DNA of 64,000 nucleotides, taken from assembly GCF_009931435.1 (NCBI RefSeq), contig NZ_CP043414.1. One strand, written 5' to 3'. A program made the position numbers and the translations under genes. This document shows, piece after piece, positions 9,090 through 36,152 of the stretch. This DNA comes from Escherichia coli. Lineage in GTDB: Bacteria; Pseudomonadota; Gammaproteobacteria; Enterobacterales; Enterobacteriaceae. Every line of letters starts with the position of its first letter. The stretch's first letter is position 1. The notes beneath the pieces were generated by a model. The model had not been told where the DNA came from. It worked only from the letters and a program-made list of their open reading frames with translations, and did not search any database.

Positions 9090-9093
9090 GCGT

Positions 9094-9972: not shown

Positions 9973-10704
9973 TTAAATGCCGAGTGGGAAAATATCATGG
10001 CCTTGTTCCTGCCAACTGGTAAGTTGCTGCTGTTGGGCAGAGGTTCGATTTTCACCGCACCACACCAGCAATGTACGGCCTTCGAACAGTTCAGGGCGTA
10101 GTTGATTGAGCGAGTGGGCGAGGACATCAATGCGCCATCCTTGTTGACTGGCAATCCAGCCCTCTAGCCACAGACGGGTGGTATCCTGAATATTCCAGCC
10201 AACCACCAGCGCATCTTTACCCTGTTTTTTACGTGCCGAAGCCAGACAAATGGCGATGTAGTTGATCAGTACGCCGTCGAGGATCGCCAGCAGCGCCTGG
10301 AGAGTCGGTTGTTGGCACTGAAGCCGTCGGCGCAGAGGAATAAACAGGTGCGTGGTGAGTGTCTGGGCGGGGTAATCCTGACCGCGCTCTTTGATCCACG
10401 TTCGCAGGCTATGCAGATTGCCACTTTGCAGGTAAGTCAGTAATGTTTCTTGCTGATCGCGCCAGCCGTTCTGCACATCAACATTTTCATTACTGAGCAG
10501 CATTTTAACTTTGCTGACCTGCACGCCGTTGTCGATCCAGCGTTTGATCTCGCGGATCCGGTCAATATCGGCATCATTGAACAGCCGATGACCGCCGTCT
10601 GTCCGTTGCGGTTTCAGCAATCCGTAACGCCTCTGCCACGCGCGTAACGTGACAGGGTTAATATCACAAAGCAACGCCACTTCACCAATTGTGTAAAGCG
10701 CCAT
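9973..10704 (-). CDS. mlrA: MerR-family transcriptional regulator of curli (csgD) expression
   Basis: 243-aa ORF; N-terminal MerR helix-turn-helix MALYTIGEVALLCDINPVTLRAWQRRYGLLKPQRTDGGHRLF. Confidence 0.9.
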   Translation of the reverse strand: MALYTIGEVALLCDINPVTLRAWQRRYGLLKPQRTDGGHRLFNDADIDRIREIKRWIDNGVQVSKVKMLLSNENVDVQNGWRDQQETLLTYLQSGNLHSLRTWIKERGQDYPAQTLTTHLFIPLRRRLQCQQPTLQALLAILDGVLINYIAICLASARKKQGKDALVVGWNIQDTTRLWLEGWIASQQGWRIDVLAHSLNQLRPELFEGRTLLVWCGENRTSAQQQQLTSWQEQGHDIFPLGI

Positions 10705-10925
10705 CGTCTCACCCTTGCTCGCGAGGTCCCAGTTTAACTTTAGACGCAGTTTTGCGAACCAGGTAGTTTTGCCCGTTTTTTGTTCATCTATAGGGTGATT
10801 TTATTTTTGCCAGGCGATTTTGAGTGATCGTACTCACGAATTCTCATTTTTCTGCAAGAGTTCAAAGAAAGTTAAACGCAGGCAATGTATGTTACGCGTT
10901 TTAAAGGGAAGTGTGGTTTGCGGGT

Positions 10926-16471: not shown

Positions 16472-17604
16472 GACTGAAGATTCTCCGCAAGCCAGGTCGC
16501 CAGTTCGCCTGGCGTCATCGCGGCTATTTGTGCGCCGACATTTACCAGCGCCTGGGCTGTATCGCGGTCGTAGCAAGGTGTTGCGGTGCTATCGAGCGCT
16601 GCCAGTCCCAGCACTTTGATGCCGCTCTGGACACACTTTTTCACCTGATGCGTCAGCAATGATGATGAACCCCCTTCATAGAAATCGCTCACGAGGATAA
16701 TGACGCTTTTCGCTGGTTGTTCAATAAGTTGCCGACCATACTCCACGGCACTGGCGATATTGGTCCCGCCGCCCAGTTGTACTTTCATTAATAACTCTAC
16801 CGGATCAGCAACGTCTGCCGTGAGATCAACGACGCTGGTGTCAAAAGCGACCAGATGGGTGCGGATACCGGGTAACTGCCATAAACAGGCCGCCATCACC
16901 GCTGAGTGGATCACCGAATCGACCATTGATCCGCTTTGATCAACCAGTAACACCAGCTGCCATTGTTCGCTATGGCGTTTAATTCGGCTGTTAAAGCGGG
17001 GGGATTCGATATACAACTTGCCGTGTTGCGGGTGCCAGTGTTGCAGGTTGGCGCGCAGAGTACTTTTGAAATCGAAATTACGCGCCAGTGGAATAAATGA
17101 GCGGCGACGGCGATCGCGTACACCTGAAAAAGCCTGACGAACTTCCTTTGCCAGTCGCGCCATAATTTCTTCAACAACCTGGCGCACTATCCGGCGGGCG
17201 GCAGCCAGCACTTCGGGATTCATCAGATGTTTGGTGTGCAAAACGGCGCGTAGCAGGCTTTCAGAGGGCTGCATACGTTCCAGCACGTCGAGATTCGTCA
17301 CCACATCTTCAATGCCGTAGCGCAGTACGGCATCGCTTTCCAGCCGCTCAATCACCTGTTGCGGGAACAGCGTGTGAATACTGTTGATCCAATCAGGGGT
17401 GGTGAGATTTGAGCCACCTAATCCACCGGAGCGTTCACCACGCTGGAGCCGTTCAGGGTCGCGCCCGTACAGCCACTCCAGCGCGTGGTCTATCCGCCGG
17501 GCGTTGTCATCCAGCCCACAAAGCGTCGTTTCTGCCGCTTCGCCAAGAATTAATCGCCAGCGTTGTAGCTCACGAGTGGTCAGAAGATCGTTCAGTTCAG
17601 ACAT
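16468..17604 (-). CDS. yehP: von Willebrand factor A domain protein YehP
   Basis: Internal start MSELNDLLTT gives 378 aa; MIDAS-like DxSxS motif (LVDQSGSM); overlaps the yehM stop. Confidence 0.8.
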   Translation of the reverse strand: MSELNDLLTTRELQRWRLILGEAAETTLCGLDDNARRIDHALEWLYGRDPERLQRGERSGGLGGSNLTTPDWINSIHTLFPQQVIERLESDAVLRYGIEDVVTNLDVLERMQPSESLLRAVLHTKHLMNPEVLAAARRIVRQVVEEIMARLAKEVRQAFSGVRDRRRRSFIPLARNFDFKSTLRANLQHWHPQHGKLYIESPRFNSRIKRHSEQWQLVLLVDQSGSMVDSVIHSAVMAACLWQLPGIRTHLVAFDTSVVDLTADVADPVELLMKVQLGGGTNIASAVEYGRQLIEQPAKSVIILVSDFYEGGSSSLLTHQVKKCVQSGIKVLGLAALDSTATPCYDRDTAQALVNVGAQIAAMTPGELATWLAENLQS

Positions 17605-19886: not shown

Positions 19887-20975
19887 TCACGGCAGGCGGT
19901 GGCGAGCTTGATAATAAGCCTGCCAGTGAGCTTCTTTATGTGTAGCGACACGTTGTTCGAAGTAACGGCGCAGACGTGCGCGATCTTCTTCGTTATCTTT
20001 GACGATGGTTCCGGCAATACAGTCCACCAGGTCGGCTGGCTCCCCCGCGCGATTCGCTAAAAACCAGGCGCGGACGCCCACGGCGTGGGCCACGTTAACG
20101 GCTTCAGCGGTGGACATAATCGCTGTAAAGGTATCCATTGAGGTTTTCTTTTCGCCGTTGGCACGCAGATCGCGGAAGGTGCGGACCAGTAACTCCAGTA
20201 CCGCGTCAGGCACTTTATGCGGAATGCCACTATGGGCCAATAAACGCGCCGAAGCACTGGCGACCAGTTCCAGTTCCTGGGCGAAATCCATAATCGGAAA
20301 GACAGTTTCAAAATCGAATCGACGTTTTAGTGCCGCGCTCATTTCATTAACGCCGCGATCGCGGGTATTGGCAGTGGCAATAATATTAAAGCCTTCTCGC
20401 GCATAGAGCTGACTGGCTTCACCAGTGAGTTCCGGCACCGTCATAACCCTGTCAGAAAGCATACCTAACAGACAGTCTTGTACTTCCAGTGGTGTACGCG
20501 TTATCTCTTCAAAACGGACAATTTTGCCGTCGCGCATTCCCTGGTAGAGCGGGGCAGGGACCAGCGCTTCCGTTGACGGACCATGATTAATAAGCAGGGC
20601 GTAGTTCCAGCCGTACTTGATTTGATCTTCGGTGGTAGATGCGCCGCCCTGGATAGTTAACCCAGCATCGCCGCTAATAGCGGTTGCCAGTAATTCAGAC
20701 AGGAGCGATTTTGCGGTGCCTGGTTCCCCCACCAACATCAAACCGCGCCCGGTAGCAAGAGTGACTAACATGCGTTCGACAGCGGAGGGACTAATCACGA
20801 CTTTACGGCTGATATTTTGCGCGCTATCGCCAAGAATAAAAGAACGGGCCGCAGGCAAACTTAACTGCCAACCGGGCGGGCAAGGTGCGTGATCATTTTG
20901 TTTTAATTTTGCCAGTTCATCGGCGTATAACACAGCGGCAGGTGGACGCTGCAGATGATTATTCTGCGGTGACAT
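19887..20975 (-). CDS. yehL: MoxR-like AAA+ ATPase YehL
   Basis: Walker A LVGEPGTAKS; start at MSPQNNHLQRPP has an AGGGA Shine-Dalgarno-like sequence upstream and gives 362 aa (the ORF-track start at 21041 has none). Confidence 0.8.
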   Translation of the reverse strand: MSPQNNHLQRPPAAVLYADELAKLKQNDHAPCPPGWQLSLPAARSFILGDSAQNISRKVVISPSAVERMLVTLATGRGLMLVGEPGTAKSLLSELLATAISGDAGLTIQGGASTTEDQIKYGWNYALLINHGPSTEALVPAPLYQGMRDGKIVRFEEITRTPLEVQDCLLGMLSDRVMTVPELTGEASQLYAREGFNIIATANTRDRGVNEMSAALKRRFDFETVFPIMDFAQELELVASASARLLAHSGIPHKVPDAVLELLVRTFRDLRANGEKKTSMDTFTAIMSTAEAVNVAHAVGVRAWFLANRAGEPADLVDCIAGTIVKDNEEDRARLRRYFEQRVATHKEAHWQAYYQARHRLP

Positions 20976-21094
20976 ATATTCATCCCTGAAATGTATTAAT
21001 GAAATAAAAGATATTTTACGCGCAATAAATGTTTGGCGCATTAGTTGTTTGAGCGGAAAATATCTGGAAAGCAGATCACAGTAAATAAAAAAAC

Positions 21095-21235
21095 CTGCTG
21101 GTGAGGCAGGTTCTTTTATTTACTACTTTCAGGCCTAACACCACGGCCTGTGCAACATCGTGTTCCAACGAACGAATTATAACCACCGCTGGACCCCGTT
21201 GCAATTAAGATAATGAGATTTATAATCCTGACAGT
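21095..21235 (-). ncRNA. orzO: Candidate OrzO antitoxin sRNA, copy 1 (boundaries approximate)
   Basis: On the minus strand the hairpin aacctgcctcaccagcaggtt is followed by a 7-T run, i.e. a terminator for a transcript running divergently from the zorO leader. Confidence 0.35.
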
Positions 21236-21407
21236 TGGGAGGTTGCGCCGGATCGAACCAATTTCAAGTCCTGGCTACCGGACGGGTGGTGCTGCAGGTG
21301 GTGCCCTGATCCGGAGTGCAACATCGTGGTCCAACATACGTAAACCAGTATCGACAGGCAGTGTAAGGGTAAGGTGCTGGTGTTGCGCTCCTTAATAAGG
21401 AGAGCGG

Positions 21408-21497
21408 ATGGACACGCTGACACAAAAGTTAACCGTGCTCATTGCCGTACTGGAGTTATTAGTGGCTCTGTTACGGTTGATTGATTTGTTGAAGTAA
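21408..21497 (+). CDS. zorO: Type I toxin ZorO, 29-aa hydrophobic peptide, copy 1
   Basis: atg..taa ORF encoding MDTLTQKLTVLIAVLELLVALLRLIDLLK, preceded by ggagag Shine-Dalgarno-like sequence and followed by hairpin gggggaaaataccgcttccccc plus T-tract; matches my recollection of ZorO. Confidence 0.75.
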   Translation: MDTLTQKLTVLIAVLELLVALLRLIDLLK

Positions 21498-21704
21498 CGG
21501 GCAAATTGAAACGCATCTAAGGGGGAAAATACCGCTTCCCCCTTTAATAAAATGATTACTGTTTTTAATAATTCATCATATAACTCATTTTTATTTATAA
21601 ATTCATCGATTTTATATTCAACGCACCATTTGACCGGGATGTAAATATTTATGGTGGGCTATTGGCAAAAAATATCTGGAAAGTAGATCGCAGAAAATAA
21701 AAGA

Positions 21705-21845
21705 ACCTGCTGGTGAGGCAGGTTCTTTTATTTACTACAGTGACGCTAACTTGCTGATTGTGCAACATTTCGTACCAACGAATAAATTATAACCATATCC
21801 ACACTCCATTGCAATTCAGTGAATGAGATTTATAATCCTGCCCGT
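21705..21845 (-). ncRNA. orzO: Candidate OrzO antitoxin sRNA, copy 2 (boundaries approximate)
   Basis: Same minus-strand hairpin plus U-rich tract as copy 1. Confidence 0.3.
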
Positions 21846-22017
21846 TGGGAGGTTGTGCCGGATCGGACCAATTTTAAGTCCTGGCTGCCGGACGGGTGGT
21901 GCCGCAGGCGGTGCCCTGATCCGGAGAGCAACGTTTCGTACCAACATACGTAAACCAGTATCGACAGGCAGTGTAAGGGTAAGGTGCTGGTGTTGCGCTC
22001 CTTAATAAGGAGAGCGG

Positions 22018-22107
22018 ATGGACACGCTGACACAAAAGTTAACCGTGCTCATTGCTGTACTGGAGCTATTAGTGGCTCTGTTACGGTTGATTGATTTGTT
22101 GAAGTAA
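22018..22107 (+). CDS. zorO: Type I toxin ZorO, copy 2
   Basis: Peptide identical to copy 1 despite synonymous nucleotide differences (gcc to gct, tta to cta). Confidence 0.75.
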   Translation: MDTLTQKLTVLIAVLELLVALLRLIDLLK

Positions 22108-22160
22108 CGGGCAAATTGAAACGCATCTAAGGGGGAATACCGTTTCCCCCTTTAATAAAG

Positions 22161-22481
22161 CTATTTTTCTATTTGTTGGATGAATATATTTTGTAGTTCA
22201 CGATTAAAAATTGCTATTACAGTTTTAGGTGATTCACCTCGTAATTTACGCTCATCAATAAATTCATCTCTTATATAAATCAACGCATCATTTATTAGCG
22301 GGTCGACATCTTCTCGATCACGTTGATGAAATGTTGGATGTAGCCGGAATCGCTCCAACCGGTAGACGGAACCAGTAAATAATTCAGAGCGTTTATGGAC
22401 CTCAAGTCTGAAGGAAAACGGATCTTCAGGTACAGGGTCCTCATAATCGTAAATAGCGACCAGCTCTTTTTGCACGATCAT
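22161..22481 (-). CDS. yehK: Small uncharacterised protein YehK
   Basis: 106-aa ORF downstream of yehI; acidic; no known motif. Confidence 0.7.
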   Translation of the reverse strand: MIVQKELVAIYDYEDPVPEDPFSFRLEVHKRSELFTGSVYRLERFRLHPTFHQRDREDVDPLINDALIYIRDEFIDERKLRGESPKTVIAIFNRELQNIFIQQIEK

Positions 22482-22540: not shown

Positions 22541-25500
22541 TTAATGGAAAATGACGTCGGGTGCGCTTAACGCCTCACTCAAATCAAACACATCAAGTGC
22601 GGCAAAAGTGACAGATTTATTGTCACGGTACACTCGAAGAGAACGGAAGCTCATTAGCGCTTTGCTATCAGCACTGTAGTGGTTAAAACCGGGTGAAAAC
22701 TTAAGGACCAGCCGATACTCGCCCAGGTCATAGACACATGCGTCCTCAAAACCTGACTCCCAGCCTTTGTATCGCATTCCCATAAGTTGCCCAACGGTTG
22801 CGGATTTACCTTCCCAGCGAGTCAGGCTGTTACTGGCTGACTCGTCAGGTGTGAGCAGCACTGTGCGCCGCATCAACTGGCGAAAAGGCGGCATAATTTC
22901 GTAATCGGCAAAAACCTGTGCAAATTCACTGCGCATTTCTGCTGTCATTTCTAACGGGTGGGCAATGCCAATCAGATCATCCGCAGGCAGGTCAATTGGC
23001 TCATCTTGTGCGTTGCAGAATTCCCCCTCTGCGGCCACACGAAAGGCGTTGAGTAAACGACGCGGTTCATTTGCCGGATAAACCGCCCATATTAATCGCT
23101 GAGTAACCAGGCGGGTAAAGGGATGATTAACAAACAGAGAATGAAAATCTGCCAGCGACCAGCGTCGGGTGGTGCGCAGGGCAGTTTCAAGACGTGGGAG
23201 CAGGTTTTTGCTCACCTGAGTGGCATCTTTTTTTAGCCCTTTTAGTCGGGCCAGTGCCTCGGGTGCTTTCAGTTGATCGTCATCGGCGCGCAACCGGGGA
23301 ACGCTTTTCTGGCGAACGTTTTGCTGATCAAAGATAACCGGGTTGAGGTTTTCATCGAAGCGAACGGTAAACTGCCGGGGTCCAAAATCAAATATCAACG
23401 CCTGCGGATCATCCAGGCCCAGTGTTGGGACTAATCTGTCCGCTAACTCTTCCTGGCTTAGTCCACGATTTTCTGCGACCACCTGAAGAAATTCCGCCGC
23501 GTTATCACGTAAGGGACGGGATTTCGCCCGTTGCGATATATGATGCAGCTGTATCAGCGCCATATCATTATTCATCAGGGTAAGTATGTTCAGGCCACTG
23601 ACGGCACGGGCAGATTTGCCTTCCTGTGGCCAGGCGAGGATCTGTGTTGTCAGATCCCGAGCCGTGCTTTCGTCACCAAAGAGACTTAACGCCAAAAAAG
23701 CCCAGTTGTCTTTTGCGGGGGCGCCAGCCTGTTGCCAGGCGGTGAAGAGATCCCTGGCAAAAGCGGCCAGCGTTTGTGGCTGGCAGAACGTTTTCAGTTG
23801 TTCCAGCCCACAATAAAAACGTCCGCCCTGGGTAAAGCGCAGCATTTCGCCGATAATTTCCAGAGCATCATCAGTAACAGGTTGATTATTCGTGATAATT
23901 CTCGGTCTGGACCACATTGTCGGATGCCAGAAATCAGGGGCTTTGGGAATGCGTGCCGGGTAAATGTCCATTGGACCCTGTTTAAGTAATTGCTCTAGGG
24001 AAGGCCATACATCTGTACGCTGCCAACGATTGGCTACAGTTTGTAGCAATTCGCCATGTCCTTGTTCGTAAAGTAAACGCAGGGCAAGTAATGCAGCTTC
24101 GCTATTATCGCTGGATTTGGTGTAGACAAGAGGGATAAGTGCCGTAGCCGTATGCTCCGGCCATTGTAAAATCCACTGGCGAGCCAGATTACGCTGGCCC
24201 GCAAAACGATGCCAGACGCGGGCAACGGGCAGAGCCAGTTCTGTTGCGCCAAAATGAATCAGCAGCGGAAATATCTCTTTGGGATGTCGGGCAAAGGCGG
24301 TGATTAATCCGGGCAAAGCATCGGTACCCAGGACACTTAACAGATATTCTACCCCGGTGTAATGAAAATCAGCCGCGACAATTTGTTGCCAGCACGATAC
24401 CGCCATTTCGCGCGGCATCTGCGCGATAAGGTACAGATTCCAAATCCCCCAACGCTTTTCATTACCATAGTAAAATCCGTGCTGAAAAGTTCGCCACCCT
24501 CCCATCAACGCAATGCTATCTTGTGCCAGTAATGATTTGGTGGCTTCTTCCCGGTACTGTTTAGATTTGGCCTGATGCGCGTGATAAGTATGCAAAAGTC
24601 CTATTGATGTGTATTCTTGCAGTTGCTGAGTATCAAAGGCATCCAGCTGTCCATTAAGAAGACGCTTATTAAATTCCAGGCTATGAACGTCAAAACCTAA
24701 TTCCCGCAAGAAGGTATCCGCCCCTCTGTTAGCAAGACGTTCGTCAAAAGACATGGCGCTAAAATGGTCAATTGCAGTTTGCTGTTCCGGCGTCCAGTGT
24801 TTATTCGGCGACTTGTACGCTTGCGGTACAAGCGTAAGTTCAGGTAGCGAAAAGTGAGTTATGGAAGTCTTTTTCCTGCCACGCCATGGTGGTGAAACGA
24901 GGATTTCAGGCAGACTGCTGTTATTGGTGCTATCAATAACCGGTTTTGGCGAAGCCGATAAATAACTATTCACCACTGCCCGGGCTTGAGTACTTAACGA
25001 CGGGATCACCTCTTCTGCCAGTTGTGGCTGCGATGCCATCAGCGTTTGTAACAGCGTATGCCAGTATTCATCACGTGCTTTTTGCTGTGCAGGCAGCTTT
25101 TTGTCTTCGATGATAGGATAACCAGGGCGCGCAGGGGGGGCTTTTAACGCCAGCAGTTCTGCCAGTGCGGCGAGCGTCGCATGGGGGAAGTTTTTACTGT
25201 ATTTAGCCACACGTTGCAGGCTGGGTTTGTTTTTATCAGCCACCAGTAGCAAGGTGCGGATGACTTGCGGATGGTTAATTTGTACCAGCAGACTGCCGCA
25301 ATCTTCTTTATGTGCATACATCGCGAGGCGCGGAACGGCTGCCAGTCCTTGTTCGCGCAAAAGGGCAGCGCAGGCCGCGTAGCCGAAGTGGTTTTCATGC
25401 GACATGTAGCTGGCTTCGCGATCGCTAAATATATCCTGACTCCAGTAGTGATCGAGTTTTCTGACCGCGCTGGGGTCATTAGCAACAACTTTTAACCACT

Positions 25501-26197
25501 CCTTAGAATGATAATGAGTCCGTGGGCATTCAAGGCCTATCAACTCATTGGCGATTTCTGGTTTCTCCGGGAGGATGAGTGCAATAAAAGGACGGCGAAC
25601 TTTGGGTATTCCTGGCAGTGCGGCAATGAGTTTGTCGGCGCAACGCTGCCAGCAGCTTTCCTCTGCCAGAGAGAGATGCTTACGCAGTCGGAGATCGAAT
25701 TCGTTATAGGTTTCTGAGCGATAACCATAGCCATAGCCATAGTCCTCCTTCTGATACTGCAATGTTACTACCAGAGGATCACTCTCATAACACCGTACAA
25801 TAAACTGGCGTGCAATCACCACCTCAGTCGCATATTCCAGCCCCTCTTGTTGGACGATTTCGTCGAGTAACTGTTGGCTATCATTTTGCGCGATACAGGC
25901 TAGCGCCGCCATTGTCCGGGCCGGAATTGAGGGTTTGTGCTCGCCGATCAAGTTGATGGCTTGCGTAATGGCCGACTGCCACTCCAGTGAAAAATTTTCA
26001 TAACGCCAGACAATGTTTTTTTTCTTCTCAGCAATGTGTAGCAATTTATCACCCAGTGTCTGGATGAGGCTTTCAGTGATAACAGGCACCGGTTCGCCCG
26101 GCCAATTGCGATGGCTGAGTGGTGTTTTGCCTTTTTTATATTTCAGTTCCAGTTGGGCGTTATCCGCCAGCCACGGTAATTCCTTGTCCATGCTCAT
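22541..26197 (-). CDS. yehI: Giant DUF4132-family protein YehI (no WGR domain)
   Basis: 1218-aa ORF; C-terminal region is paralogous to the two upstream genes (shared FDFGPRQFTV block); start is 4 bp from the upstream stop. Confidence 0.8.
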   Translation of the reverse strand: MSMDKELPWLADNAQLELKYKKGKTPLSHRNWPGEPVPVITESLIQTLGDKLLHIAEKKKNIVWRYENFSLEWQSAITQAINLIGEHKPSIPARTMAALACIAQNDSQQLLDEIVQQEGLEYATEVVIARQFIVRCYESDPLVVTLQYQKEDYGYGYGYRSETYNEFDLRLRKHLSLAEESCWQRCADKLIAALPGIPKVRRPFIALILPEKPEIANELIGLECPRTHYHSKEWLKVVANDPSAVRKLDHYWSQDIFSDREASYMSHENHFGYAACAALLREQGLAAVPRLAMYAHKEDCGSLLVQINHPQVIRTLLLVADKNKPSLQRVAKYSKNFPHATLAALAELLALKAPPARPGYPIIEDKKLPAQQKARDEYWHTLLQTLMASQPQLAEEVIPSLSTQARAVVNSYLSASPKPVIDSTNNSSLPEILVSPPWRGRKKTSITHFSLPELTLVPQAYKSPNKHWTPEQQTAIDHFSAMSFDERLANRGADTFLRELGFDVHSLEFNKRLLNGQLDAFDTQQLQEYTSIGLLHTYHAHQAKSKQYREEATKSLLAQDSIALMGGWRTFQHGFYYGNEKRWGIWNLYLIAQMPREMAVSCWQQIVAADFHYTGVEYLLSVLGTDALPGLITAFARHPKEIFPLLIHFGATELALPVARVWHRFAGQRNLARQWILQWPEHTATALIPLVYTKSSDNSEAALLALRLLYEQGHGELLQTVANRWQRTDVWPSLEQLLKQGPMDIYPARIPKAPDFWHPTMWSRPRIITNNQPVTDDALEIIGEMLRFTQGGRFYCGLEQLKTFCQPQTLAAFARDLFTAWQQAGAPAKDNWAFLALSLFGDESTARDLTTQILAWPQEGKSARAVSGLNILTLMNNDMALIQLHHISQRAKSRPLRDNAAEFLQVVAENRGLSQEELADRLVPTLGLDDPQALIFDFGPRQFTVRFDENLNPVIFDQQNVRQKSVPRLRADDDQLKAPEALARLKGLKKDATQVSKNLLPRLETALRTTRRWSLADFHSLFVNHPFTRLVTQRLIWAVYPANEPRRLLNAFRVAAEGEFCNAQDEPIDLPADDLIGIAHPLEMTAEMRSEFAQVFADYEIMPPFRQLMRRTVLLTPDESASNSLTRWEGKSATVGQLMGMRYKGWESGFEDACVYDLGEYRLVLKFSPGFNHYSADSKALMSFRSLRVYRDNKSVTFAALDVFDLSEALSAPDVIFH

Positions 26198-26200
26198 TCC

Positions 26201-29200
26201 TTATTCAAACAGGGCTTCGATGTCGTTAATTAACTCGCTAGCGGTGATGTCATCGAGTGCGGAGAACTGCGCTTCCTGTGTTGAATCAATCCCCCAGCCA
26301 TAGCTTTCTGCTTTGCCTTCCCATAGCCACAGCTTGCTTAAGAGTTGCTCGGCACTGAGTTCGGCTGGCGACATACCAACTGCAAATCCTTCATCGATTT
26401 CCATGATTAATGACCAGCGGCCCAGAGGTTTGATCATCCAGCCGATCCAGCCACCGTCCTGCGGTTCACCACGCATCCAGCCTTTATTCGCCAGCCCCAT
26501 TACCCGACCGCTCGGGCATTTTCTGCCTGCCCAGCGGGTCAATTCGCTGGCATTGCGCTCGGTTTCTGTCAGGGCGTAACTGTTACGGTCGAGCTGGCGG
26601 AACGGCGGTAGCAGTTCGTAGTCGGCAAAAAGCTGACCAAAGGCGGCAGCATCCGTGGGTGATATTTCCAGAACGTGAGGAATGCCAACAGAGATATCGC
26701 CTTCCGGCAGGGTGAAAAGATCATCGTCAGCGGTGCTGTAGCTGTTATCTTCCGCCACACGGAAGCACGCCAGTAACTGGTTGTCTGCGCTATAAATGCC
26801 CCAAATCAGACGGCGGGTTAAGTGGCAGACCAGCGGATGCTCAACCAGAAAGAGCTGAAAGTTTTCTGGCGACCAGCGGCGGCGCAGGCACATGGCGGAT
26901 TCCAGCCTTGCCACCTGCTGGGCGGCAACGGTACGCGCATCTTTTTTCAGCAGTTTGTAGCGGTTAACTGCATCGTTCGCTTGAGTTTCATCATCGCTTT
27001 TGTTCGGTTTAGGCAAGTCTTTCAGGCGGCTGCCGGAAGCATCACGCACAAACGGTTTTAAGGTTTCATCAAAGCTGACGGTGAACTGCCGTGGCCCGAA
27101 ATCCAGCAGCAGCGAACCGTTATCATCCAGACCGAGATCCGGTGCTAACCGGTCTTCAAGCTCCGCCACCGTGAGTTCGCGGCTCTCGGCAATGTCGGCA
27201 ATTTTTTCTTTTGCCCGCTCCTGTAATGCTTTGAATTTCAGTTTCTGGGCGATGCCGTTAAGCTGCATCAGGGCGATATCACTACCGATAGCAGCGAGAA
27301 TATCCAGCCCGACGGTGGCGCGTTTATGCTGGGATTCACCAGGCCAGGCGCGAATCAAAGGCGTCAGTTTGCGGGCGGTATCATCGTTGCCGAGAACACC
27401 TAACGCAGTGAACGCCCAGCTTTCTTTCGACGGTGCGCCAGCGGTCTGCCAGGCGGTAAACAGATCCCAGGCAAATTCAGCCAGTGAGTCGGCGGTACAG
27501 GCATCTTTCACCTGCAATAATCCCGCATACAGAGCCTCTTCCTGAGGGAAGCGGAGCATTTCACCGAGGTGGAGGAGGGCGTTATCTGGCAGTGATTGGG
27601 CGTTTGCTTTTAATACCGGGCGTGTCCAGAGCGATGGCTGATAAAAGGCCGGAAGTGTCGGGATTTTAGTCGGGTGATTATCTAAGGGATCGAGCGCAAG
27701 TAGAGCGTTCACCGCATCGGTTACTTCCGGCTGGTTATAACGCTGGGCGATTTCTTGCAGTAATGACGGATAACCACTTTCAATCAACATACGTAAGGCG
27801 GCGCGGGCGTTATCCTGGGCTTCACCAGCTTTGCCGAGTGCCGCAGGCAACAGGCCGATAATGGCATGTTCCGGATATTTCAGCAGCCAAGTGCGGGCGT
27901 CTTGTCGTAGAGTTTTGAGTTTGTTAAAGGCGCGGGCGACGGCAGGAGCCAGTTCCGTTGCGGCAAAATAATTAGCAACCGCAAAACCTTCTTGAGGGTA
28001 GCGTGAAAACGAGTGTAGAAAACCACTCATACCTGCCAGTCGCAAATAAAGCATGACAGGTTTTACCGCGGTATGCGGCTCTTTGCTGAGAAACTCCCAT
28101 AGTTTAATCGCTTTTTGCATAGGTAAAAAGGGAAGTGAGTTGAGATGCCACTCCCCCTGATACGGTGCATGGTGGGCTTTAAACATTTGGATGAGTGTAG
28201 CGAAGTCCTCACGTTCCCATGCGTCAATTGCCGAGTCAGAAGCGCCGATATATTTATATGTGTCAAAATCCCAGCGGCGATACCCCAGCGAGTAAAGGAA
28301 ATCTTTAGCACCTTCACCTGGCTTATGCGATTCCCAGTCCCAATGAGTTTGAAACTCTTTTGCTTCTGTGTCGGTTATTGTGCATATGGATTTGAGTTTG
28401 AGCGGTGCTAAATCCAACACCGGAATCGTCGATTTTTTCTTTTTCGAAAGCCAGGGAGGTAAGACTAATACGGCTGGCAGTAGAGCGGCGCAGGCATGGT
28501 TTGACGGTTGTATCAGTTGTTGCTGGCATGATTTCAGCACTTCAACTGCGGCTGTCGAGAGCCAGGGAGTGACCTGTTCTGCCAGTGCCGGTTGCGAGAT
28601 AAGCATCGTCATTAGCATAATGCGCCAACTATTCTCTTCTTTTTGCGCAAGAAGTTCCGCCAGTGCTGCCAGTGCTGCGTGTGGGAACGCAGCGCAGGCT
28701 TTCGTCATTCGATCGTGACAGCGTTTAGTAAGCCCGGCTACACGTATAAGCAGTGTTAATGCGAACGGATGATTGATATGACGCAACACATCGGCGCAGT
28801 AGTCACTTGCGGCATAGGGAGCAAATCGGGGCAGGGCTGCAACACCTTGCTCCTGTAATACGGTGGCTGACAATATCGCACCACAATAGTAATCATCAAA
28901 AATGGCATATGGCTCGTGATATTTTTCTAATGAGGCAAGAATGTGCTCATCAGTCGCCACTATTTTTAGCCACTCAAGCGAGGGTAATTTTTTTTTCCCC
29001 AGTAGACGCTGGGCAATTTCATGTGCAATTTCTGGTTTTTCGGGTAATAACAAAGCAATTAATGGTTGCCGCCATTCTGGAATATGTGGAATTGCGGCAA
29101 TAAGTTTTTGTGCACATTTTTGCCAGAGAGACTCTTCCGCCAGTGATAAATGTTTCCGTAGGCGTAATTCAAAACTGGAATATTGCTGCAGGTTATCAGG

Positions 29201-29989
29201 TGCAATACCAGACGGCAGAATAATAATGGTATTATTCGCATAATCCCATTCAATATCAATCTGTTGAAGATGTATTACTACATCAGTAGCATATTCCAGG
29301 CCACCTTCCTGAACGAGCTGATCCATAACATCCTCACGCTCTTTATATCTCGTGCACTTCAGTTCAAGTGCCGTGAGTACAGCCATTACTGGTGATGGTA
29401 ACTGTGTTGTTTTCAGGCAGTCGATCTGACTGAGCGCCTGGGAGATGGCGTTTTGCCATTCTAAAGAACAGGCGCTGAAATCAAATGTGGCTGTTTTATT
29501 ATCCCGTTGCGACACGCTACAGGCTAAGCGACGTAACTGGGTCAAGTTGTCTGCTTGCTGAACAGGAACTCCGGGAAAGCGGCGATGGCTTAACGTGGTG
29601 TGTACAACTTCGGGCGGAAAAACGACAGCAATATCTTTCGCCAGCCACGGTAAAACATCATCTGTATTTTTGTCAGCCACACGGGCTTCTGCTACGCAAA
29701 AGGGTTGTTCCTGAATAATGGTGGATAAGGCCGCTACCTTGAGAGAATCCGTTACCGTTTGGGAAGGTTGCAAAGAATTATCCTTCGCTTGCCCCACATA
29801 CCCCTTCTTCACCTTCTCCGCAATCAGCCTCAGTTCCGCTTTTTCCGCCGCCGCAGCATCAGCAAAGCTTTTTACCTGGCTTTGCCCGTTGGTACTGACT
29901 TTGCCCCAACTAATATGCAGCTCGTTTCCCTGTTGCTCCACTGCCCAGAATTTATGTGATTTTTCGTCCTGATAAATATAGGTTTTCAT
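26201..29989 (-). CDS. WGR-domain plus DUF4132 protein, molR/yehH-like paralog A (intact)
   Basis: 1262-aa ORF; N-terminus MKTYIYQDEKSHKFWAVEQQGNELHISWGKV is WGR-like; aaggaa Shine-Dalgarno-like sequence upstream; C-terminus ends LDDITASELINDIEALFE. Confidence 0.8.
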   Translation of the reverse strand: MKTYIYQDEKSHKFWAVEQQGNELHISWGKVSTNGQSQVKSFADAAAAEKAELRLIAEKVKKGYVGQAKDNSLQPSQTVTDSLKVAALSTIIQEQPFCVAEARVADKNTDDVLPWLAKDIAVVFPPEVVHTTLSHRRFPGVPVQQADNLTQLRRLACSVSQRDNKTATFDFSACSLEWQNAISQALSQIDCLKTTQLPSPVMAVLTALELKCTRYKEREDVMDQLVQEGGLEYATDVVIHLQQIDIEWDYANNTIIILPSGIAPDNLQQYSSFELRLRKHLSLAEESLWQKCAQKLIAAIPHIPEWRQPLIALLLPEKPEIAHEIAQRLLGKKKLPSLEWLKIVATDEHILASLEKYHEPYAIFDDYYCGAILSATVLQEQGVAALPRFAPYAASDYCADVLRHINHPFALTLLIRVAGLTKRCHDRMTKACAAFPHAALAALAELLAQKEENSWRIMLMTMLISQPALAEQVTPWLSTAAVEVLKSCQQQLIQPSNHACAALLPAVLVLPPWLSKKKKSTIPVLDLAPLKLKSICTITDTEAKEFQTHWDWESHKPGEGAKDFLYSLGYRRWDFDTYKYIGASDSAIDAWEREDFATLIQMFKAHHAPYQGEWHLNSLPFLPMQKAIKLWEFLSKEPHTAVKPVMLYLRLAGMSGFLHSFSRYPQEGFAVANYFAATELAPAVARAFNKLKTLRQDARTWLLKYPEHAIIGLLPAALGKAGEAQDNARAALRMLIESGYPSLLQEIAQRYNQPEVTDAVNALLALDPLDNHPTKIPTLPAFYQPSLWTRPVLKANAQSLPDNALLHLGEMLRFPQEEALYAGLLQVKDACTADSLAEFAWDLFTAWQTAGAPSKESWAFTALGVLGNDDTARKLTPLIRAWPGESQHKRATVGLDILAAIGSDIALMQLNGIAQKLKFKALQERAKEKIADIAESRELTVAELEDRLAPDLGLDDNGSLLLDFGPRQFTVSFDETLKPFVRDASGSRLKDLPKPNKSDDETQANDAVNRYKLLKKDARTVAAQQVARLESAMCLRRRWSPENFQLFLVEHPLVCHLTRRLIWGIYSADNQLLACFRVAEDNSYSTADDDLFTLPEGDISVGIPHVLEISPTDAAAFGQLFADYELLPPFRQLDRNSYALTETERNASELTRWAGRKCPSGRVMGLANKGWMRGEPQDGGWIGWMIKPLGRWSLIMEIDEGFAVGMSPAELSAEQLLSKLWLWEGKAESYGWGIDSTQEAQFSALDDITASELINDIEALFE

Positions 29990-30001
29990 TGCTAATTCCT
30001 T

Positions 30002-33000
30002 TTAATTAAACAGTGATTCAATGTCGTTAATCAGCTCGCTGGCGGTGATGTCGTCGAGTACGGAGAAAGTGGGTGAGGATTGCTTACCATAGCGATCATA
30101 AGGGGCGGTGATTTTTACGCTTTCGACAGGCAGCAGGTCGCTATACCCCGTTTCGCCATAAATTAATGAAAAAGGTTCTGTTTCAAGTTCGAGAGCGCCA
30201 TAAGGGGTAGATTTGCGCATCGCATAGACGCTGCCGCTTTCTTCCAGACGTTGCCAGCCTCGGCGCTCTAGCCCGACAATACGTCCGGCCTGACAGAGCT
30301 GTCCTTGCCAGCGTGTCAGGTCGTGGGTATTCCGTTCATTATCAGCAAGACGATAACTACCACGATCGAGCTGTTGGAAGGGGGGAAGCAGTTCGTAATC
30401 AGCGTAAATTTGCCTGAATGCAGCGGCAGATTCAGGGGGGATTTCCAGCACATGCGGTATACCGATGTTTCCTGCTGGCAGCGTGAATAACTCATCCTGC
30501 ATATCGCTGTAAGTGCTGTCTTCTGCGACCCGGAAGCAGGCAATCAGCGTGTTTTCCTCAGTATATACTCCCCATAACAGCCGTCGGGTTAAGTGACGTA
30601 CCAGCGGATGCTCCACCAGAAACAGGCGGAACTGTTCTGCCGTCCAGCGTCTGCGCTGGCACATAGCCTGCTCCAGACGATCAATCTGCTGACTGGCAAT
30701 GGCGCGCACATCTTTCTTCAATTGTTTGAAGAGGTTAACGGCGTCAGTTGCCAGTGTTTTATCATCGCTCTGATTTGGTTTGGGTAAATCTTTCAGGACT
30801 TTGCCGTTTGCATCGCGCACTACAGGTTTTAAGGTTTCGTCAAAACCAACGGTGAATTGACGTGGGCCGAAATCCAGTATCAGCGAGCCACTGCTATCAA
30901 GCCCTAAATCTGAAGCCAGGCGGTCTTCCAGTTCAGCCATTGTCAGTCCGCGATTTTCGGCGACCATATTGATTTTGTCGCGGGCGTGTTCCTGCAATGC
31001 TTTGAATTTAATCTTTTGTGCAATGCCATTAAGCAGCATCAGCGCAATATCGCTACCGATACTGGCTAACACATCCAGCCCAGAAACCGCACGTTTATGC
31101 TGGGATTCACCCGGCCAGACCCGGATAAGCGGGGTTAGTTTACGCGCGGTGTCGTCATTGCCTAAAATCCCCAGCGAGGTAAATGCCCAGTTTTCTTTTG
31201 CGGGCGCGCCAGATTCCATCCATGCCGTGTAGAGATCCCAGCCAAAGTCAGCCAGTGATTCCCGGGTGAAGATTTCTCTAATGATATCCAGTCCAGCGTA
31301 GGCGGTAATGTCGCGAGGGAAGCTCAACATAGTGCCCAGGTGGCGCATAGCGTCATCGGACAGAGGCAGATTGTTACTTTTAAGCCGTGGTCTGCGCCAT
31401 AAGGTGAACTGATAAAAGCCGGGCAGTGGGGCGATTTTTGCGGGATATTCTTCCAGCGGATCGCTATCGAACAATGTTGCCAGCGCAGCTAAAACATCTG
31501 GTTGATTATATCCTTGGGCAATTTCCTCAATCGTTTCTCGCTGGTTTAAATTCACCAGCAGGCGAAGCGCCTGGCGGGCACAATCACGATCTTTTCCTTG
31601 TTTGCCCAGTGCCACAGGAAGTAGCCCGGCGGTGGCATGGCGTGGGTAATCAGTTAGCCAGTTTCGCGTATCTTCATAAGACATTTTTTTCTGTAATTGT
31701 TGCGCCATCGGTAAGGCCAGGTCACTGACACCGAGGAAAAAGGGGAAGAAGCACAGACGTCGTGGATCACGTTGCAGGCAGGTCATAAATGAAGGTATGG
31801 CGGCGCTACCAAAAATTGCCAGAATATTTCCCTCATCAGAGTAGTTATCTTCTTTGACTATCTGGTTAAGAAAAGAAATGGCCTGTTGACCAGGCAGGTA
31901 ACAGAGGGCAATGAGATTCCAGCTTTTGTATGCATTGTTATGGTATTGCACAAATTCAGCATTGAGTGCTGGAAAATCGAAGCGTAGCAGGGCATCAACG
32001 GCGCTTTGTGGCGCCGGAATTTTTTCGTAGATTTTTTCTCCGCTTTCCCGCCATTTTTCAAAACCAAGATGCCACAGTATTTGTTGCTCCGGTGTAAGCG
32101 GTATTAAGTGTTTCTCCCAGCTTGCTTTTTTTATCGGCGGCAGGTCGGTAAACAATGTTTGTTTTGTCGCCTGCTGTTGGGCTATTTGCTGGAAGCGGGT
32201 GACAAGGTAAGTACGGGTTAGTCTTTTGGCAATCTCGGGAGTGACATCAGAAACAGAAGGAACTGGAAGCACTGGAAGATCAAACACAGGCGTATTTTTC
32301 TTTTTCTCTTTGGTCATCCAGGGCGGCGAAACAAACAGCTCCGGCAACATATCCACAGTGGCATATTCACATTCTTCAGCTACTGGCTGCGGACGACATT
32401 CAGATAAGATGCCTGCCGCTTTAGCATTAACCCAGGGAATGACGTCACATACCAACTCTGGCCTGATGGTAATCAGTTTGATAAGTGCGTTACGCCACTG
32501 TGCATCTTCGTGTATTGCAAGCAAAGTAGCATAAGCGGCAATAGCTGCAGCGGGATGTTTTTGACAGGCTTTGCTTAAGTATTCCAGGTGCTTTTTCTTG
32601 CCAATCACAGCGAGGATCAGAATTTGAATCGCATCCGGGTGATTCGTTTTCCATAGCCATTTGACAAGATTTTCAGTCTCGCTGTTGCGCTCGAAAAGAT
32701 AAGTGGGATTGTCAGAATGCTCTTCCGTAAACTCAAGAAGGATCTGGCTTACACCCCGAATTCCATTATTCGCCAGCAACATTGCCAGATAAGCGCGAAA
32801 ATTACGAAAATCACGATACAACGGTGGGAAGTCGTATTTTTCCACTGTACTCAGAGCAGTATCATCGGTTATCACCAGTCTTAACCAGGTCATCGCCGGA
32901 ACGTTTTGGTCTGCATAGCGTAGAGCCATAGCATTGGCAATATCCGGGCGTTCAGGGAGCAGTAACGCGGCAAAAGGTTGCCGTGCTGGAGATAGCGAGG

Positions 33001-33811
33001 GAATAGCCGCGAGTACTTTATCTACACAGCGTTGCCACTCATCTTCTGAAGTGAGTGAAAGATGATGACATAGACGTTGATGCCAACTAGGTAGCGATTC
33101 TGCTTCGTGATTAGGTGGAATGATGGTGGTTACTGCGCCTTTTACTGGTTTATATTTGAGTTGAATAGCGAGAAGGGCAATTTCAACGGCACTTTCCAGA
33201 CCACAGCGAATGACTAAGTCATCGACCAATTCATCTGCAGAGTAAGAGTTCCAAAAACTCCAAAGCAATGCTGCATCAGATTGCGCACTTCCTGTCTGTT
33301 GACTACCCAGAATTCGCATTTGTAACTCAGCAAACGCCTGCTGCCAGTTTTCTGGATAAGAACGGTAATTGTTGTCGGGATCATATGCCCTGGTGTTATC
33401 TGCAATACGCTTCCATATCTCACCGTCTTTGCGCAGATAATTGATCTCTCTGGGGCGAGAGCGATGTGGAAAAGCAAATCGGTTAATATCGTCGGTTAGC
33501 GGAATGGCTGCATCATCAGCCAGCCATGGGCGTTTGTTTTTACTCTCAGGTGAAGTTTCAACTTCAGGAGTGACTTTGGTGACGGGGGGGATATGCACGT
33601 TTGCCGAAGCGTCTTCCACATAGCCTTTTTTCGTTTTCTCAGCGATAAGCTTCAGTTCCGCTTTTTCCGCCGCCGCAGCATCCGCAAAGCTTTTTATCTG
33701 GCTTTGCCCTTGGGTGCCAACTTTTCCCCAACTGATATGCAACTCGTTACCTTGCTGCCCCACCGCCCAGAATTTATGCGATTTTTCGTCCTGATAGATA
33801 TAACTCTTCAT
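30002..33811 (-). CDS. WGR-domain plus DUF4132 protein, molR/yehH-like paralog B (intact)
   Basis: 1269-aa ORF; N-terminal 65 aa nearly identical to paralog A; agggaa Shine-Dalgarno-like sequence upstream; C-terminus ends LDDITASELINDIESLFN. Confidence 0.8.
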   Translation of the reverse strand: MKSYIYQDEKSHKFWAVGQQGNELHISWGKVGTQGQSQIKSFADAAAAEKAELKLIAEKTKKGYVEDASANVHIPPVTKVTPEVETSPESKNKRPWLADDAAIPLTDDINRFAFPHRSRPREINYLRKDGEIWKRIADNTRAYDPDNNYRSYPENWQQAFAELQMRILGSQQTGSAQSDAALLWSFWNSYSADELVDDLVIRCGLESAVEIALLAIQLKYKPVKGAVTTIIPPNHEAESLPSWHQRLCHHLSLTSEDEWQRCVDKVLAAIPSLSPARQPFAALLLPERPDIANAMALRYADQNVPAMTWLRLVITDDTALSTVEKYDFPPLYRDFRNFRAYLAMLLANNGIRGVSQILLEFTEEHSDNPTYLFERNSETENLVKWLWKTNHPDAIQILILAVIGKKKHLEYLSKACQKHPAAAIAAYATLLAIHEDAQWRNALIKLITIRPELVCDVIPWVNAKAAGILSECRPQPVAEECEYATVDMLPELFVSPPWMTKEKKKNTPVFDLPVLPVPSVSDVTPEIAKRLTRTYLVTRFQQIAQQQATKQTLFTDLPPIKKASWEKHLIPLTPEQQILWHLGFEKWRESGEKIYEKIPAPQSAVDALLRFDFPALNAEFVQYHNNAYKSWNLIALCYLPGQQAISFLNQIVKEDNYSDEGNILAIFGSAAIPSFMTCLQRDPRRLCFFPFFLGVSDLALPMAQQLQKKMSYEDTRNWLTDYPRHATAGLLPVALGKQGKDRDCARQALRLLVNLNQRETIEEIAQGYNQPDVLAALATLFDSDPLEEYPAKIAPLPGFYQFTLWRRPRLKSNNLPLSDDAMRHLGTMLSFPRDITAYAGLDIIREIFTRESLADFGWDLYTAWMESGAPAKENWAFTSLGILGNDDTARKLTPLIRVWPGESQHKRAVSGLDVLASIGSDIALMLLNGIAQKIKFKALQEHARDKINMVAENRGLTMAELEDRLASDLGLDSSGSLILDFGPRQFTVGFDETLKPVVRDANGKVLKDLPKPNQSDDKTLATDAVNLFKQLKKDVRAIASQQIDRLEQAMCQRRRWTAEQFRLFLVEHPLVRHLTRRLLWGVYTEENTLIACFRVAEDSTYSDMQDELFTLPAGNIGIPHVLEIPPESAAAFRQIYADYELLPPFQQLDRGSYRLADNERNTHDLTRWQGQLCQAGRIVGLERRGWQRLEESGSVYAMRKSTPYGALELETEPFSLIYGETGYSDLLPVESVKITAPYDRYGKQSSPTFSVLDDITASELINDIESLFN

Positions 33812-33951: not shown

Positions 33952-35985
33952 TTATTTCACCTGATGGCCCGGTTTAGCACCGGCATCCGGGCTTAGCAGG
34001 AAAATATCTTTCCCGCCAGGACCGGCAGCCATCACCATGCCTTCAGAGATACCGAAGCGCATTTTACGTGGTGCCAGGTTAGCCACCATAATGGTGTGAC
34101 GACCAATAAGTGCCTGCGGATCCGGGTAAGCAGAACGAATGCCGGAGAAGACATTGCGTTTTTCACCGCCGAGATCCAGTGTCAGGCGCAGCAGTTTGTC
34201 AGAACCTTCAACAAACTCTGCGTTTTCAATCAGCGCCACGCGCAGGTCAACTTTAGCGAAGTCGTCAAAGGTGATGGTTTCCTGAATCGGATCATCTGCC
34301 AGCGGGCCAGTCACGGGGGCGGCAGTGGCTTTCACTTCTTCTTTAGACGCTTCCACCAGTGCTTCAACCTGCTTCATATCGATGCGGTTATACAGCGCCT
34401 TGAACGGATTCACTTTGTGGCCCAGCAGCGGTTGCTGGATGCCATCCCAGGTCAGTTCCGTATTGAGGAATGCTTCTGCACGCTCGGTCAGTTTTGGCAG
34501 TACCGGCTTCAGGTAAGTCATCAGTACGCGGAACAGGTTAATGCCCATAGAGCAAATCGCCTGCAGGTCAGCATCGCGACCTTCCTGCTTCGCCACCACC
34601 CACGGAGCCTGTTCATCGACATAGCGGTTAGCCAGGTCAGCCAGTGCCATGATTTCGCGCACTGCTTTACCAAATTCACGGCTTTCCCATGCTTCACCAA
34701 TCACTTCAGCGGCATCCGTGAAGGTTTTGTACAACTGCGGGTCAGCCAGTTCGCTTGCCAGCACGCCGTCAAAACGTTTGTTGATAAAGCCTGCGTTACG
34801 GGACGCCAGATTAACCACTTTGTTGACGATATCGGCATTCACACGCTGAACGAAATCTTCCAGGTTGAGATCGATATCATCAATGCGCGAAGAGAGTTTC
34901 GCAGTGTAGTAGTAACGCAGGCTGTCAGCGTCAAAATGATTCAGCCAGGTGCTGGCTTTAATAAAGGTGCCGCGAGACTTGGACATCTTCGCGCCGTTCA
35001 CCGTTACATAGCCGTGAACAAACAGGTTGGTCGGCTTGCGGAAGTTGCTACCTTCCAACATGGCAGGCCAGAACAGGCTGTGGAAGTAAACAATATCTTT
35101 ACCGATGAAGTGGTACAGCTCGGCGGTGGAGTCTTTCTTCCAGTATTCATCGAAGCTTACGCTGTCGCCGCGCTTGTCACACAGATTCTTGAAAGAACCC
35201 ATGTAGCCAATCGGTGCGTCCAGCCAGACGTAGAAATATTTGCCCGGCGCGTTCGGAATTTCAAAACCGAAGTACGGTGCATCGCGGGAGATATCCCATT
35301 GTTGCAGGCCAGATTCAAACCACTCCTGCATTTTGTTTGCCACCTGCTCCTGCAACGCACCGCTGCGGGTCCATGCCTGCAGCATTTCGCTGAAAGAGGG
35401 CAGATCAAAGAAGAAGTGTTCAGAATCACGCATTACCGGGGTAGCGCCAGAAACCACCGATTTCGGCTCGATCAGTTCAGTCGGGCTATATGTTGCGCCG
35501 CAGACTTCACAGTTATCGCCGTATTGATCCGGTGATTTACATTTCGGGCAGGTGCCTTTCACAAAACGGTCCGGCAGGAACATGCCTTTTTCCGGATCGT
35601 ACAGTTGAGAGATGGTGCGGTTTTTAATAAAACCGTTTTCCTTCAGGCGAGTATAGATAAGCTCAGACAACTGACGGTTCTCTTCACTGTGCGTCGAGTG
35701 ATAGTTGTCATAGCTGATGTTAAAGCCTGCGAAATCAGTCTGATGCTCCTGACTCATTTCGCCAATCATCTGCTCCGGAGTGATACCAAGCTGCTGAGCT
35801 TTCAGCATGATTGGTGTACCGTGGGCATCGTCGGCGCAGATGAAGTTGACCTCGTGGCCGCGCATTCGCTGGTAACGGACCCAGACATCAGCCTGGATGT
35901 GCTCCAGCATATGGCCGAGGTGGATTGAGCCGTTAGCGTACGGCAGTGCGCACGTCACCAGAATTTTCTTCGCGACTTGAGTCAT
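33952..35985 (-). CDS. metG: Methionine--tRNA ligase
   Basis: Start [29 protein letters not shown] (HIGH motif) gives 677 aa; KMSKS motif present. Confidence 0.95.
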
Positions 35986-36152
35986 AGTAGGCATTACTTC
36001 TTTGTAGTGAAAAGGGCTTAGATAGTACCAAATGGGGCATGGTTACGTAAGTCCTGTGCAAGCATCTTATGATGCATTATTAGGTAAGTACTTAGCTGTT
36101 AACTTCAGGTAAACTAATAGCGATAAGTTATCTTTATAAATAAGGAGTCGGG

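Follow-up and report, generated by a model that had tools for sequence, protein, structure and literature searches.

The 64,000-nt window of Escherichia coli DNA analyzed here (contig NZ_CP043414.1) carries, next to metG, three giant tandem genes of the DUF4132 family, and they raise the question of why paralogs that resemble each other so closely at their ends differ so much in between. All three are co-directional open reading frames (ORFs) on the minus strand: paralog A (30002..33811; 1,269 amino acids), an accessory copy; paralog B (26201..29989; 1,262 amino acids), whose body is orthologous to molR (yehH) of E. coli K-12; and paralog C, or YehI (22541..26197; 1,218 amino acids). Spacers of 12 nt (A/B) and 3 nt (B/C; 26198..26200) separate them. 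We find that the mosaic of conserved and divergent segments is real and that it is mainly ordinary domain-level conservation in genes that were already catalogued. Its evolutionary side is very probably that of tandem paralogs of ancient origin that belong to a single widespread modular family, with constraint specific to each module, local conversion of the head, recombining classes of a variable cassette, and deletion mediated by the head. As to function, architecture, synteny, and variation lead us to propose, tentatively, that the proteins are interchangeable sensor/adaptor subunits of a single MoxR-vWA (von Willebrand factor A) machine. Taken together, these two parts form the best overall explanation at hand, and we lean modestly toward its being correct.

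In a three-way MAFFT protein alignment of A, B, and YehI (column numbers below refer to it), 58 of the first 65 residues were identical between A and B, bearing out the near-identical heads reported in a first-pass annotation of this DNA. The corresponding nucleotides (29820..29989 and 33650..33811) differed by scattered substitutions and no indels, as that annotation had it; at 141/162 identical positions (87%), however, they were less than "almost identical." Identity then fell to 30% across columns 66 to 830 (175/589), so that the divergent center is genuine but spans ~750 alignment columns rather than the ~500 residues proposed. It rose again to 73% in columns 976 to 1300 (233/321), in line with a conserved C-terminal third, although the extreme C terminus was uneven: a dip in columns 1301 to 1380 (20/71 identical; 28%) preceded a final 25 columns with 18/24 identities. 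The variance of identity among 50-column windows was 0.0446, ~9 times the permuted mean (0.0048; maximum, 0.0104), and none of 5,000 permutations reached it. The picture of YehI needed correction. It lacks the WGR head, as had been noted, but its homology is not confined to the C terminus: B and YehI aligned along their whole length after the head (445/1125 identical; 40%), and in the N-terminal core they were closer to each other (42%) than A was to B (31%).

Both conserved ends correspond to recognizable functional modules, as the annotation had supposed. Pfam placed a WGR domain (PF05406) at residues 8 to 69 of A (E = 1.6e-17) and 7 to 68 of B (E = 1e-14), and none in YehI. DUF4132 (PF13569) was matched in all three proteins from model position 1 to 3 through 179 of 179 (A, amino acids 1003 to 1186, 30254..30805, E = 2.4e-51; B, 26477..27034, E = 6.7e-51; C, 22814..23368, E = 1e-46). 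A sequence search of the PDB returned a single match, the WGR-containing solved protein 2ra8 (E = 2.4e-15), and NCBIfam and PADLOC searches with A, B, and C found nothing beyond the WGR head. An AlphaFold2 (AF2) model of B residues 70 to 1262, built from 56 family sequences, had a mean predicted local distance difference test (pLDDT) score of 88.5 and a predicted template modeling score of 0.79. Predicted disorder was limited to residues 70 to 109 (29663..29782; pLDDT below 50 for model residues 1 to 40), a linker between the WGR domain and the helical body. Helix pairs made up most of the remaining model; the cassette region had a small insertion of mixed alpha/beta structure, the C-terminal domain was of the alpha/beta type, and pLDDT was 94 in the C-terminal module. 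The variable middle is thus predicted to be a folded helical region and not a disordered linker. The best Foldseek matches were the HEAT-type proteins CAND1, PR65, and the karyopherins, all of them weak (E = 2e-4 to 1e-2; template modeling score, ~0.1), and a Foldseek search of AFDB50 returned family members only. Sequence and model together suggest an optional WGR head, a flexible linker of ~40 residues, a variable helical N-core (amino acids 110 to 515 of B, 28445..29662, from high-pLDDT helices and a neighbor-joining tree), a hypervariable cassette, a HEAT-like solenoid, and an alpha/beta DUF4132 domain. The last two would form the conserved C-terminal module of B (26201..28054), delimited by the family profile, AF2, and Foldseek.

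Is this pattern peculiar to the locus? Searching with the full-length protein yielded so many near-identical E. coli entries that no diversity was seen. An exhaustive profile search recovered 5,943 cluster representatives at 50% clustering, most of which aligned only to B residues ~650 to 1260. In a 107-sequence alignment, per-position information had its lowest values at B residues 550 to 629 and across the N-terminal half and its highest at 830 to 1190, with the minimum of family-wide conservation at the B cassette. Because this profile mirrors the A/B identity curve, the mosaic is a property of the family and not of the window locus. Tandem arrays of 2 to 7 co-directional DUF4132 genes were present in 18/67 genome loci, and the same head-high, core-low, tail-high profile was seen among the paralogs of seven such arrays (Massilia, Duganella, Polaromonas, and actinobacteria). 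That tandem paralogs of distant taxa share it likewise indicates that the pattern belongs to the family. The longest array, with eight copies ending at a yehL homologue, lies in Massilia aquatica (NZ_VVIW01000005.1, 221311-259465; overlapping loci L034 and L018). Up to seven giant DUF4132 copies were also found inside one fetched 23-kb locus of M. mucilaginosa, and long arrays occur at loci L027, L033, L052, and L058. The contig of one distant homologue had no informative neighbors. An additional E. coli WGR-DUF4132 protein (P0126; 1,246 amino acids, in a cluster of 123) was ~47% identical to B over residues 188 to 1193, so allele or paralog diversity exceeds the classes sampled here.

The first-pass annotation had raised gene conversion as a cause of the similar ends, and recent or ongoing conversion between tandem paralogs, with the middle escaping, would indeed keep both ends alike. 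Conversion was assessed with A and B alleles of other E. coli genomes; the head set comprised 11 A and 12 B alleles from three-copy genomes. Within head nt 16 to 165, A and B had no fixed differences and shared 17 polymorphisms, whereas nt 1 to 15 were paralog specific and B-specific fixed differences returned from nt 166. Over this tract, the A-B distance was lower within genomes (0.108) than between them (0.117; permutation P of ~0.01) and was about as large as the allelic distances A-A (0.104) and B-B (0.073). The proportion of synonymous differences between A and B was also lower in the head (0.56) than elsewhere (0.72 to 0.86). The C-terminal third behaved differently, with 27 to 39 fixed differences and 2 or 3 shared polymorphisms per 150-nt window (first 150 nt: 2 fixed, 12 shared; Fisher P = 5e-11). 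Even the last 78 nt sorted by paralog (23 to 29% divergence between A and B versus 0 to 9% within a paralog). By the Nei-Gojobori method, the synonymous divergence (dS) between A and B was ~1.0 in the head, with a nonsynonymous-to-synonymous ratio (dN/dS) of 0.06; it was ~2.3, or near saturation, in the C-terminal third (dN/dS, 0.09) and saturated in the core. We conclude that the data support gene conversion over ~150 nt inside the WGR head (33647..33796 in A and 29825..29974 in B) and nowhere else.

For the tail, conversion is already refuted. In neighbor-joining trees with outgroups, the nearest relative of A in every segment was not B but a Klebsiella oxytoca protein (P0125), and in the DUF4132 region B itself was closer to the K. 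oxytoca protein (distance of 0.28) than to A (0.46). What has kept the tail conserved is therefore purifying selection acting on paralogs of ancient origin, a conclusion that these sequence comparisons support well. In the same trees, B and YehI were sisters in the N-core (236/300 bootstraps) and YehI formed a long branch when the C-terminal half was used. Since the mosaic is also seen among paralogs of unrelated taxa and in the profile of the whole family, conversion as the general cause of both similar ends is very improbable. Under the explanation that we favor, the mosaic arises because the modules differ in constraint: the WGR head and the C-terminal solenoid/DUF4132 are under strong purifying selection throughout the family, the N-core and cassette are free to vary, and ongoing A/B conversion over head nt 16 to 165 makes the head appear younger than the rest of the gene.

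The homogenized head may have a further consequence for gene content. Of 5426 complete E. coli genomes, 1643 (~30%) had paralog A; the rest had one WGR-DUF4132 gene plus yehI. The single molR-like copies of K-12 and DA61218 matched B at 92 to 94% nucleotide identity. The molR-like gene of each of the six two-copy genomes examined (K-12 among them) was A-type over nt 1 to ~165 and B-type from nt ~168, and the gene bodies shared 841 to 1,659 15-mers with B against 10 to 19 with A. These genes (7023..10818 of locus L002 for K-12; also L005 and L082 to L085), assigned by head haplotype and 15-mers, are chimeric. The simplest reading is that the body of A was deleted by recombination between the homogenized A and B heads, leaving an A-head/B-body molR-like gene; we infer the direction of this event. 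The chimeric heads fell into two different A haplotypes, both matched in three-copy strains, which suggests that deletion occurred more than once or that exchange followed. The molR gene of K-12 would thus be explained as a recombinant of two paralogs. In genes, gene order, and metG neighbor, the window agrees with the K-12 locus of the molR pseudogene and yehI, from which it differs in having the extra paralog A, a rare yehI cassette allele, and three intact paralogs, whereas K-12 molR is frameshifted.

A separate short B allele of ~1,010 amino acids (3,033 nt), missing ~250 N-core residues, was found in O157:H7, O55:H7, PapRG-04-4, and E-1246 (L004, 7236..10221; L075, 1206..4190; L076, 1158..4190; L080, 1158..4190; L081, 1155..4187). 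In some strains it was intact; in others it had a frameshift.

Much of the variation within E. coli is concentrated in the middle of the genes. Each paralog has one hypervariable cassette of ~130 to 160 residues with discrete allele classes: approximately amino acids 521 to 660 in A (31832..32251), 516 to 645 in B (28055..28444), and 441 to 600 in YehI (24398..24877). The cassette begins just past a near-invariant LPxxLxxPPW motif and a lysine run. Orthologous alleles were 85 to 100% identical over most of the gene and 37 to 73% identical over gene nt ~1400 to 2000. For A, cassette identity between orthologs was 60 to 73% against 85 to 100% in the flanks, and dS was 1.5 to 3.1 against 0.1 to 0.5; for YehI, nucleotide identity to the K-12, ST131, and O157 alleles was 37 to 56% against 87 to 99%. 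Comparing classes overall, dS ran from 1.5 to saturation in the cassette and from 0.05 to 0.5 in the flanks. The ST131 allele of B differed over the whole N-core, where it was 50 to 69% identical. Window-type alleles of A occurred in 939 genomes and a class 60 to 80% identical in 699. The window-type B allele occurred in 649/5426 genomes, with ~4,280 matching at the edges only, and the window-type YehI allele was detectable in just 48/5426. Queried by itself, the YehI cassette retrieved only four fragments. Exchange of cassettes between paralogs was looked for and not found; cross-paralog matches were confined to conserved boundary segments of 40 to 50 nt.

From these comparisons, the cassettes are best described as old allele classes moved by recombination, far older than the gene around them. 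Within classes, cassette evolution was conservative (dN/dS of 0.15 to 0.35 for N-core plus cassette), and between classes, cassette dN/dS was 0.08 to 0.39. The C-terminal module of B had a dN/dS of 0.05 to 0.16. The earlier suggestion that these are diversifying specificity proteins thus holds in part: ancient allele classes are maintained, as would fit a specificity region, but dN/dS never exceeded 1. In the explanation that we prefer, the N-core and cassette exist in E. coli as discrete, anciently diverged classes swapped by recombination.

The same observations could be read in a more neutral way, with the middle a tolerant helical scaffold under relaxed constraint, the genes drifting to loss, and the cassette alleles neutral recombination imports. 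HEAT-type repeats tolerate substitution, dN/dS was never above 1, and A is missing from ~70% of genomes. Decay of the locus was frequent (loci L002, L004, L075, and L077 to L080 and hit H69). Frameshifted or prematurely terminated versions of A, B, or yehI occurred, IS1203 and IS5 insertions were seen in A, and yehM had an internal stop in one O157 strain. In ST131, a blaCTX-M-15 transposon is inserted in the locus region and disrupts it (PMC9334617). Nevertheless, all three window genes are intact over 1,218 to 1,269 codons, within-class dN/dS still indicates purifying selection, and the cassettes have sharp boundaries, near-conserved length, and confidently predicted folds. Neutral drift alone does not produce class dS values from 1.5 to saturation beside flanks at 0.05 to 0.5, and the family has remained beside its operon in different phyla and has grown into arrays. 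We therefore regard relaxed constraint as an unlikely account.

What might such variable proteins do? The genes downstream give the main clue. After the three paralogs, the order is yehK (22161..22481; 106 amino acids), a toxin-antitoxin duplication described below, and yehL-yehM-yehP-yehQ; all five yeh genes are on the minus strand. yehL (19887..20975) encodes a putative MoxR-like AAA+ ATPase, so called from the RefSeq annotation ("ATP-binding protein") of a 97%-identical locus and from NCBIfam matches, all weak, to GvpN (6e-8) and the MadB ATPase (3e-7). yehM (17597..19876) encodes a DUF5682 protein (Pfam E = 4.5e-97), yehP (16468..17604) a CoxE-type vWA protein (VWA_CoxE; E = 1.8e-71), and yehQ (14480..16471) a SWIM zinc finger protein, by RefSeq annotation and a weak Pfam match (E = 0.004). 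In 42/67 loci, the DUF4132 gene or genes were followed immediately by homologues of YehL, YehM, YehP, and YehQ, arranged as in the window (per gene: yehL, 42/67; yehM, 41/67; yehP, 37/67; yehQ, 38/67); the exceptions were mostly short contigs or array interiors. Syntenic loci came from Gamma- and Betaproteobacteria, deltaproteobacteria/myxobacteria, Actinobacteria, and Holophagales, with genera including Serratia, Erwinia, Variovorax, Burkholderia, Massilia, and Stenotrophomonas. yehK was not conserved in them outside enterobacteria. The surrounding system is a widely conserved, uncharacterized variant of MoxR-vWA systems whose population genetics are unusual. A five-component cluster is thereby defined across several phyla, and a shared module is separated from candidate specificity regions. 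Although the head/tail mosaic is itself ordinary, these results, together with the old cassette classes, the localized conversion tract, and the recombinant molR of K-12, provide a testable picture of one of the larger uncharacterized conserved clusters of E. coli.

Like the yeh cluster, the known MoxR AAA+/vWA pairs (CoxD-CoxE, RavA-ViaA, NorQ-NorD, and CbbQ-CbbO) consist of adjacent genes for an AAA+ ATPase and a CoxE-type vWA protein in one operon. There, the vWA protein serves as a bridge from the ATPase to a large partner. The yeh cluster differs from them in adding DUF5682, SWIM, and one to eight WGR-solenoid-DUF4132 giants, in having no linked client enzyme, and in that its large partner is polymorphic and multicopy. 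One alternative is that the cluster is a housekeeping maturation chaperone of the CoxD-CoxE type for a metallo- or molybdo-enzyme, with the giants as scaffolds or clients. CoxD/CoxE-type pairs mature the cofactor of CO dehydrogenase, the YehP match to VWA_CoxE is strong, YehL weakly resembles MoxR-type ATPases such as GvpN, and sources name the large protein MolR or molybdate metabolism regulator. However, no client enzyme was conserved beside the cluster in the 42 syntenic loci, and copy number variation, arrays of up to eight genes, hypervariable classes, and pseudogenes would be atypical of a housekeeping maturation factor. molR is a pseudogene in K-12, and a chaperone role would leave the WGR head unexplained. 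We consider this alternative quite unlikely.

The functional part of our explanation, offered tentatively, would instead assign separate tasks to the modules. The C-terminal module may be a common docking or signaling interface to the YehL-YehM-YehP-YehQ machine, the N-core and cassette may set ligand specificity, and the tandem paralogs and alleles would be subunits of differing specificity feeding one ATP-driven remodeler. By analogy with the WGR domains that act at DNA breaks in PARP1 to PARP3, the WGR head may contact nucleic acid. In the PARPs, WGR is a DNA break reader (PMC6294510, PMC8190142, PMC4081085) that reads 5'-phosphorylated breaks (PMC6294510, PMC4081085). A and B share with PARP1/2/3 the Pfam WGR match and also match the sequence of 2ra8; they differ in lacking a PARP catalytic domain and in having the motif W-G-K in place of W-G-R. 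If the sensor/adaptor model is true, the cluster would represent a new way to couple variable recognition subunits to a MoxR-vWA remodeler.

The most plausible setting for such an activity would be a role in conflict, foreign-DNA sensing, or stress sensing. The vWA-MoxR "ternary" conflict systems described by Kaur, Burroughs, Iyer, and Aravind in 2020 (PMC7159879) likewise combine a vWA-MoxR core with HEAT/TPR-type superstructure-forming domains, and, as here, they show diversification and paralog expansion, most notably in myxobacteria and other bacteria with a social or multicellular life. They differ in that the yeh cluster has no recognizable effector and in that PMC7159879 makes no mention of WGR, SWIM, Yeh, or MolR. 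A mode of action like that of STAND/NLR-like, Avs-type sensors may also be considered by analogy, in that a conserved signaling or docking part would be joined to variable helical repeats with allelic and copy number variation. We claim no membership in that group; the nucleoside triphosphatase of the yeh cluster is on a separate polypeptide, and the cluster has no PADLOC match. A more specific proposal is that the giants are polymorphic, interchangeable specificity subunits of a previously undescribed nucleic acid-sensing conflict or immunity system built on the MoxR-vWA-DUF5682-SWIM machine, with cassettes under balancing selection and arrays of up to eight genes broadening the repertoire. 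We hold this to be possible but rather doubtful.

Several points weigh against a sensory or defensive interpretation. PADLOC-DB v2 gave 0 matches among the eight proteins A, B, C, YehK, YehL, YehM, YehP, and YehQ. No phage copy of the module was found, plasmid copies are rare, and the fixed chromosomal site beside metG is unlike typical defense islands. The SWIM match of YehQ is weak, the MoxR subclass of YehL comes from weak NCBIfam matches and annotation, and synteny is all that ties DUF4132 to YehLMPQ. No dN/dS above 1 was found in the cassette, a test that saturated dS between classes weakens. The frequent pseudogenes (K-12, O157, O55, and others) could equally mean dispensability, and no recognizable effector or death-type domain was found in the cluster proteins; these last two observations are why the relaxed-constraint and housekeeping chaperone alternatives keep some weight. 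The searchable literature held no functional study of DUF4132, DUF5682, or yeh genes, and DUF4132 appears there mainly as the transposon insertion site in ST131 (PMC9334617).

The remaining observations concern the organization of the locus. yehQ and yehP overlap by 4 nt (16468..16471), and yehP and yehM overlap by 8 nt (17597..17604), with starts set by length matching to RefSeq. Together with the 3-nt B/yehI spacer, these overlaps suggest that translation is coupled along the cluster. A tandem duplication of 610 bp lies between yehL and yehK (21057..22174); it holds two zorO-orzO type I toxin-antitoxin units, and GC content falls to 41 to 44% across it. Two identical 29-residue ZorO ORFs (MDTLTQKLTVLIAVLELLVALLRLIDLLK) lie on the plus strand at 21408..21497 and 22018..22107, and two OrzO-P small RNAs lie on the minus strand at 21087..21162 and 21699..21772 (Rfam RF02083; 98.9 and 87.3 bits). 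This arrangement matches the zor-orz pair described at the yehI-yehL locus of O157:H7 (PMC2887945).

Upstream of A, metG (33952..35994) is separated from it by a 140-nt spacer with an obvious hairpin and T-run after metG. The possibility that the DNA comes from an Escherichia species other than E. coli was rejected, because genes flanking the locus were up to 98.5% identical to E. coli and metG fell inside the E. coli range. Variation of yehL among strains (1.7 to 5.6%) was far below that of the DUF4132 genes. The window metG differed by 3.9%, inside the range among the E. coli strains compared (loci L001 to L005 and L074 to L081; mean, 3.4%; maximum, 5.1%). For a housekeeping gene, divergence of this size seems high; linkage to the DUF4132 locus, which is highly polymorphic, may be the reason.

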